NCBI GenBank assembly: GCA_036172245.1
Contig: JAYWIR010000048.1
Coordinates: 992,001-1,056,000 of the forward strand
Origin: Raillietiella orientalis
Taxonomy: Eukaryota
Reading direction: 5' to 3'
DNA: 64,000 bases
In this document: positions 36,319-58,516 of the stretch, in pieces
How the letters are laid out: every line of letters begins with the position of its first letter
How positions within the stretch are numbered: the first letter of the stretch is position 1
Program-made: the position numbers and the translations under genes
The notes under the pieces: model-generated
The model's database searches: none
What the model was told of the DNA's origin: nothing
What the model saw: only the letters and a program-made list of their open reading frames with translations

Positions 36319-58516
<22,198 letters not shown>

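Follow-up and report, generated by a model that had tools for sequence, protein, structure and literature searches.

The window, that is, the whole stretch of 64,000 nucleotides that was analysed, carries most of a gene for a voltage-gated sodium channel on its minus strand, located by tblastn with arthropod para proteins. Its stop codon lies at 36319 and its start some 29 kb past the window end: 22 of the 28 modelled exons fall inside the window, and exons 1-6 lie beyond it, with the start codon at window-equivalent position 92,942. The features used below, all on the minus strand and named after the domains DI to DIV, are the following.

36319..58516, minus: para/Nav1 gene, the 22 of 28 modelled exons in the window (tblastn)
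58453..58516, minus: turret exon of 64 nt preceding the DI P-loop exon, the most 5' exon inside the window
58257..58401, minus: 145-nt exon with AG/GT ends that holds the end of the DI turret and the P-loop, found once in the assembly (G000)
58281..58283, minus: DI filter Asp (D of DEKA)
58278..58280, minus: AAC, Asn376 of the model, DI aromatic TTX-contact site (codon reading and alignment)
41830..41832, minus: DII filter Glu, with the outer-ring Glu at 41823-41821 retained
39160..39162, minus: DIII filter Lys
39153-39151, minus: DIII M/I/T site, here Met, followed by Asp
37839..37847, minus: MFM fast-inactivation motif in the DIII-DIV linker, intact
37033..37035, minus: DIV filter Ala
37024..37026, minus: AAT (Asn1645 in the model), replacing the DIV outer-ring Asp

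Gene model and pore residues

The 28 exons amount to 1,879 positions in two halves, both free of stop codons. Across 53300-50056, within the variable DI-DII linker, the phases of the halves do not match, and a small exon that would link them was not found there; as the model lacks this one small exon, we infer the integrity of the full-length product. To preserve the frame, a 50-nt intron whose donor is weak was picked. Four domains in one gene, a DEKA filter and MFM in the DIII-DIV linker, all present here, are the marks of an arthropod Nav1/para channel. The protein is 62-70% identical to 41 arthropod Nav1 alignment rows versus 51% to Takifugu, and is placed among pancrustaceans in the tree. 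Three other assignments were ruled out: a vertebrate or pufferfish origin by the 51% identity to Takifugu, a split heterodimeric Nav1 of the aphid type (DENS filter) by the single gene and its DEKA filter, and Nav2/DSC1 (DEEA-type filter) by the Lys in DIII.

Some features of the introns and of base composition were noted in passing. In vertebrate SCN genes, the intron at the DIII-DIV linker position is a non-canonical AT-AC intron; here the intron of that linker (38923-37866, minus strand) seems to start with ATAAGT and to end with ATAA, as an AT-AA intron. A composition boundary lies inside the gene, from about 30-47% GC over the 3' exons (window 36000-58000) to 53-66% GC over the 5' exons and flanks (58000 to the 5' end). 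The DI turret is split by a 16-kb intron (window 58517-64000 and beyond); this and other 5' introns have repeats in common with contig C1.

The original prediction was that the aromatic TTX-contact residue of domain I is replaced by Asn, and the assembly sequence bears this out. The plus strand reads GTT at 58278-58280, and the minus strand from 58289 to 58272 reads ACG CAA GAT AAC TGG GAG (T Q D N W E), with AAC at 58280-58278. This Asn is aligned with a Tyr in both cockroach NavPaS (TLDYWE) and human Nav1.3 (TQDYWE), NavPaS constructs being the best PDB matches for the DI pore-loop stretch (E ~3e-24), and the motif is the TQDNWE of Takifugu obscurus Nav1.4a (P0121). The 145-nt exon is separated from the 64-nt turret exon by a 51-nt intron and is in frame with its neighbours. 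A non-aromatic residue hence adjoins the DI filter Asp, as in channels resistant to TTX and saxitoxin (STX). The accompanying D-to-N change proposed for DIV was likewise recovered, as AAT at 37026-37024 in the motif TSAGWNG; at the genomic level, the outer-ring Asp of DIV is neutralised, a second mark of resistance. The DEKA filter is intact, the outer-ring Glu of DI and DII and the Met-Asp of DIII are retained, and the DIII M/I>T change, present in some resistant channels only, is absent (Met at 39153-39151).

It is very improbable that either Asn codon, or both, stems from an assembly error or a heterozygous variant or is recoded in the RNA, in which case the channel would be sensitive to TTX or no more than mildly resistant. 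A single base separates AAC from TAC, and likewise AAT from GAT, and A-to-I editing of the DIV codon could in principle restore Asp by giving GAT. However, neither codon lies inside a homopolymer, no A>G edit of AAC yields Phe, Tyr or any other aromatic residue, and two errors would be needed at two known toxin sites, in gene halves without stops.

A toxin-sensitive second copy was sought in the assembly. A single copy of the DI exon is present in the 164 kb formed by the window and its flank (complete motif scan, and the tblastn matches listed) and a single one in the assembly, and therefore no alternative exon bearing an aromatic residue was found. Four P-loop exon searches, which score the best candidates only, and a DNA search with the DI exon found no second Nav1 with pore loops in the assembly and, to the extent of what they cover, no back-up gene or exon that would be TTX-sensitive. 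No Nav2/DSC1 appeared among the candidates of the four P-loop exon searches of the assembly, an indirect result. The weaker P-loop matches examined in the assembly were calcium channels, and L007, L009 and L054 sit in the same calcium-channel regions. As far as these searches reach, the gene appears from its sequence to be a complete Nav1/para and the only one with pore loops in the assembly. Separately, a decayed 3' fragment of the Nav gene was observed at C1:1,480,695-1,481,704 (L006, L046), with 68-80% DNA identity. It was considered as an internal outgroup and dropped, internal deletions having removed all its pore loops.

Source organism and frequency of the substitutions

The organism was placed from its cytochrome oxidase gene COI. 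For the best COI copy (C282), pentastomids occupy ranks 1, 2 and 4 among the 120 matches listed, with identities of 77% and 76% for Armillifer and 75% for Linguatula, and no Argulus is found among these 120. The copy groups with pentastomids at a support of 99.9/100 in a 16-row tree built without Branchiura or other crustaceans, and 17 of its residues are common only to the 3 pentastomids. The locus has 63% A+T and a GC skew near -0.53, and published pentastomid mitogenomes have a similar base composition (PMC12202648). We consider that this COI belongs with the rest of the assembly because copies 84-94% identical to it are found in loci of contigs C33 and C50. A total of 54 COI matches are spread over many contigs, many of them with stops, which suggests numerous nuclear mitochondrial copies. 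The Nav protein itself was grouped with two ostracods at 78.4/81, and at the base when a fish outgroup was used; its tree is weakly consistent with Oligostraca. No other pentastomid or branchiuran Nav was found for comparison. Judging from these sequences, the source of the DNA is likely a tongue worm that is neither Armillifer nor Linguatula.

Among the 120 listed arthropod matches, 114 have at least 900 aa, and 69 can be aligned over the whole four-residue filter and read DEKA there; this survey covered proteins of at most 2000 aa, a limit that many full-length para exceed, and counted isoforms separately. Tyr is found at the DI site in 46 of these 69, Phe in 18, Ala in 4, Leu in 1 and Asn in none; the DIV site is Asp in 63, Ala in 4 and Asn in 2. 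The metagenome loci covering the DI site have Tyr in 15 of 16, the last being unreadable, and hence Asn in 0 of 15. The protein has no close relative among proteins up to 2000 aa, the best matches reaching about 80% identity over the last exon, and a protein search with the DI exon returned 2 proteins. In a search of 50% clusters, the 78 long proteins included 5 DEKA channels, of which one has Asn (Ciona savignyi). Non-aromatic DI residues were observed in P0096, P0101, P0088, P0113, P0118 and P0361, which come from two ticks, an ostracod, two horseshoe crabs and Ciona savignyi; the two ticks pair theirs with a Thr in DIII.

Both sites are covered by 36 of the 41 other arthropod Nav1 alignment rows. 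Five of them are non-aromatic at DI (Ala in Cyprideis, Haemaphysalis, Amblyomma and Limulus, Leu in Tachypleus), 6 lack the DIV Asp and none shows both changes. Under independence, the double change is expected 0.023 times per row and 0.86 times in 37 rows, a rough expectation, the rows being related and hand-picked. By these alignments, Asn at the DI site is rare and loss of the aromatic residue recurrent, and the double change is not statistically surprising. The DI change is made less surprising because non-aromatic residues recur in arthropods without a known toxin link.

The channel differs at 35 of 824 otherwise conserved columns (4.2%), which ranks it 8th of 42 rows, and 4 of these changes are clustered in IIS6, away from the toxin site. 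In IIS5, a Leu is changed to Val at 42109-42107 (minus strand), a site that we take to be housefly 932; Met is retained at the housefly 918 position. In IIS6, the codon CAT (His) was observed at the housefly-1014 position (41743-41745, minus strand), three bases before an intron as in houseflies, and three residues near it are also changed. This position is Leu in 66 of 66 scored DEKA rows, and L1014H is a known kdr-his pyrethroid-resistance allele (PMC3532202). The IIS5 and IIS6 changes look like old divergence rather than insecticide selection.

Predicted toxin pharmacology

The precedents cited in the original prediction for a non-aromatic DI residue were confirmed: Cys in Nav1.5 (PMC2852835), Ser in a marsupial Nav1.9 (P0294), and Asn both in Takifugu Nav1.4a (P0121) and in aphid channels (PMC4332693). 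Its further claim, insensitivity to TTX and saxitoxin from the DI and DIV changes together, is supported as a prediction by published mutant data (PMC2852835). In rat Nav1.4, the binding-energy change is 4.8 (TTX) and 2.7 (STX) kcal/mol for Y401C, 5.2 and 2.4 kcal/mol for Y401D, and 2.4 and 6.2 kcal/mol for D1532N, which raises the IC50 for TTX 43-fold; the mutant tables of that paper include Cys and Asp at the DI site, not Asn (PMC2852835). Loss of the DI aromatic residue thus mainly weakens TTX binding, and the DIV D>N change mainly saxitoxin binding (PMC2852835). Since in the rat channel the one change acts mainly on TTX and the other mainly on STX, insensitivity to both toxins is likely here; the DI mutants are weaker on STX and D1532N is weaker on TTX, and the two changes would therefore cover each other's weak side. 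Aphids with Asn at the DI site are more than 2500-fold less susceptible to TTX than Drosophila (PMC4332693), although the residues directly mutated in that study were those of the filter, not the DI Asn. In pufferfish, 407N/C is listed as conferring resistance (PMC9543476).

The DI Asn would remove the cation-pi and non-polar contact with TTX; in rat Nav1.4, Cys or Asp at this site costs about 10^3-fold. The DIV Asn would remove the outer-ring charge that matters most for saxitoxin. Starting from the IC50 of 8.7 nM for TTX on wild-type DmNav1 (PMC4332693), a 10^3-fold shift alone would by simple arithmetic give about 10 micromolar. Together, the two changes are expected to shift block to the micromolar range or above, additivity being assumed; multiplicative resistance is reported for another substitution pair in Varroa (PMC7656900). 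The channel should stay working and sodium-selective while being insensitive to nanomolar TTX and saxitoxin. On this analysis, strong insensitivity to TTX and STX is very probable whatever the origin of the substitutions, the explanation that we prefer and two of its rivals leading to it alike. By the same analysis, the predicted STX insensitivity rests mostly on the DIV change, whereas the DI change alone acts more on TTX.

Each substitution is already known, the DI one from pufferfish and aphids and the DIV one from garter snakes. The pufferfish Nav1.4a (Takifugu obscurus P0121; 407N/C in PMC9543476) has the same TQDNWES motif in DI and a DEKA filter, but it is a vertebrate muscle paralogue of a TTX-bearing animal and keeps the DIV Asp (TSAGWDT), whereas the window gene, the sole one found, is orthologous to arthropod para. 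The aphid Nav1 is likewise an arthropod para orthologue and sole Nav1, with the DI Asn and no shown toxin driver; it differs in consisting of two genes with a DENS filter, where the window holds one four-domain gene with DEKA plus the DIV D>N change (PMC4332693). The same DIV outer-ring change occurs in the D1568N alleles of garter snake Nav1.4 (PMC10723449) and in Nav1 of the nemertean Kulikovia (PMC8472881), but the reported channels combine it with changes in DIII or with further ones in DIV, and not with a lost DI aromatic residue. The snake alleles further differ by documented toxin exposure and measured resistance (PMC10723449). VdNav1 of Varroa destructor is a TTX-resistant Nav1 of a parasitic arthropod, as the window channel is predicted to be, but its resistance maps to a Thr in DIII, where the window channel has Met (PMC5660226, PMC7656900).

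Origin of the substitutions

In our reading, this is the sole Nav1 found in a likely pentastomid, its two Asn residues predict toxin insensitivity, and these residues probably, though with considerable room for doubt, arose as tolerated divergence. The divergence would have taken place at two sites that vary repeatedly in arthropods, within a channel of moderately long branch. For the aphid channel, the authors report no sign of positive selection (PMC4332693). Two observations stand against drift: Asn at the DI site is found in 0 of the 69 DEKA-complete arthropod matches and 0 of the 15 metagenome loci, and both changes are exactly those of toxin-exposed vertebrates.

A rival explanation, plausible but in our view unlikely, is that TTX or saxitoxin-like toxins borne by the hosts selected both Asn, combining in one channel the DI change of pufferfish and the DIV change of garter snakes. 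The animal being a likely endoparasite, exposure would therefore come via its hosts and not directly from algae, either during encystment in amphibians or fish or through the blood of reptiles or birds fed on toxic prey. Consistently with such a route, pentastomes blood-feed in the respiratory tract, their intermediate hosts are amphibians, reptiles, fish, mammals or insects, and one species counts garter snakes among its hosts (PMC7417351). TTX from newts persists for weeks in garter snake liver, and copepod parasites of pufferfish accumulate it (PMC9412668). The DI and DIV changes complement each other for TTX and STX (PMC2852835), and the DIV D>N change arose twice in garter snakes (PMC10723449). 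On the other side, the DIII Thr substitution is absent and the joint presence of the two changes lies within what chance would give: toxin selection is possible but goes unsupported, because 0.86 co-occurrences are expected by chance in 37 rows.

We also considered the Na,K-ATPase alpha, of which one was identified among 5 PF00690 matches (H1-H2 loop at L041:1447-1650, minus strand, contig C8). It retains Q111 and N122 and has Lys at 120 (pig-chain numbering). Lys at this position occurs in some decapods. Toad-eating squamates have Arg at 120, together with 111L (PMC9543476). The Lys at 120 may speak for selection by host toxins, and the retained Q111 and N122 against it.

A further explanation, which we judge improbable though more likely than errors or recoding, is that the substitutions were favoured for physiological reasons, such as conductance, divalent-ion or proton block, or the ionic conditions of the host, with toxin insensitivity as a by-product. 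Snake channels with the DIV D>N change carry less current (PMC10723449), divalent-ion block in Nav1.5 likewise depends on the DI residue (PMC2852835), and other inner-pore positions are changed as well in the present channel. Two blood-feeding ticks are also non-aromatic at DI in the isoforms retrieved, but Ixodes retains Tyr, and free-living horseshoe crabs and an ostracod have lost the aromatic residue too. No close relative was found that would polarise the changes, and we rate tolerated divergence above toxin selection.

Titles and abstract beginnings in the open-access literature, a scope that leaves most subscription journals outside, gave no report on TTX resistance in pentastomids. The novelty lies in the lineage and in the combination: Asn at both the DI and the DIV site, with the DEKA filter intact, is absent from the 36 other arthropod rows. 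In practice, TTX would likely be of no use for separating out the sodium currents of this animal. If a host toxin selected the pair, the channel would be a molecular case of a parasite adapting to the chemical defence of its host, and would add a parasite tier to the toxin arms race between newts or frogs and snakes. If it was not selected, the channel would join those of aphids, ticks and horseshoe crabs as another case of a change at the TTX site without known exposure, and such changes should not be taken as adaptation.
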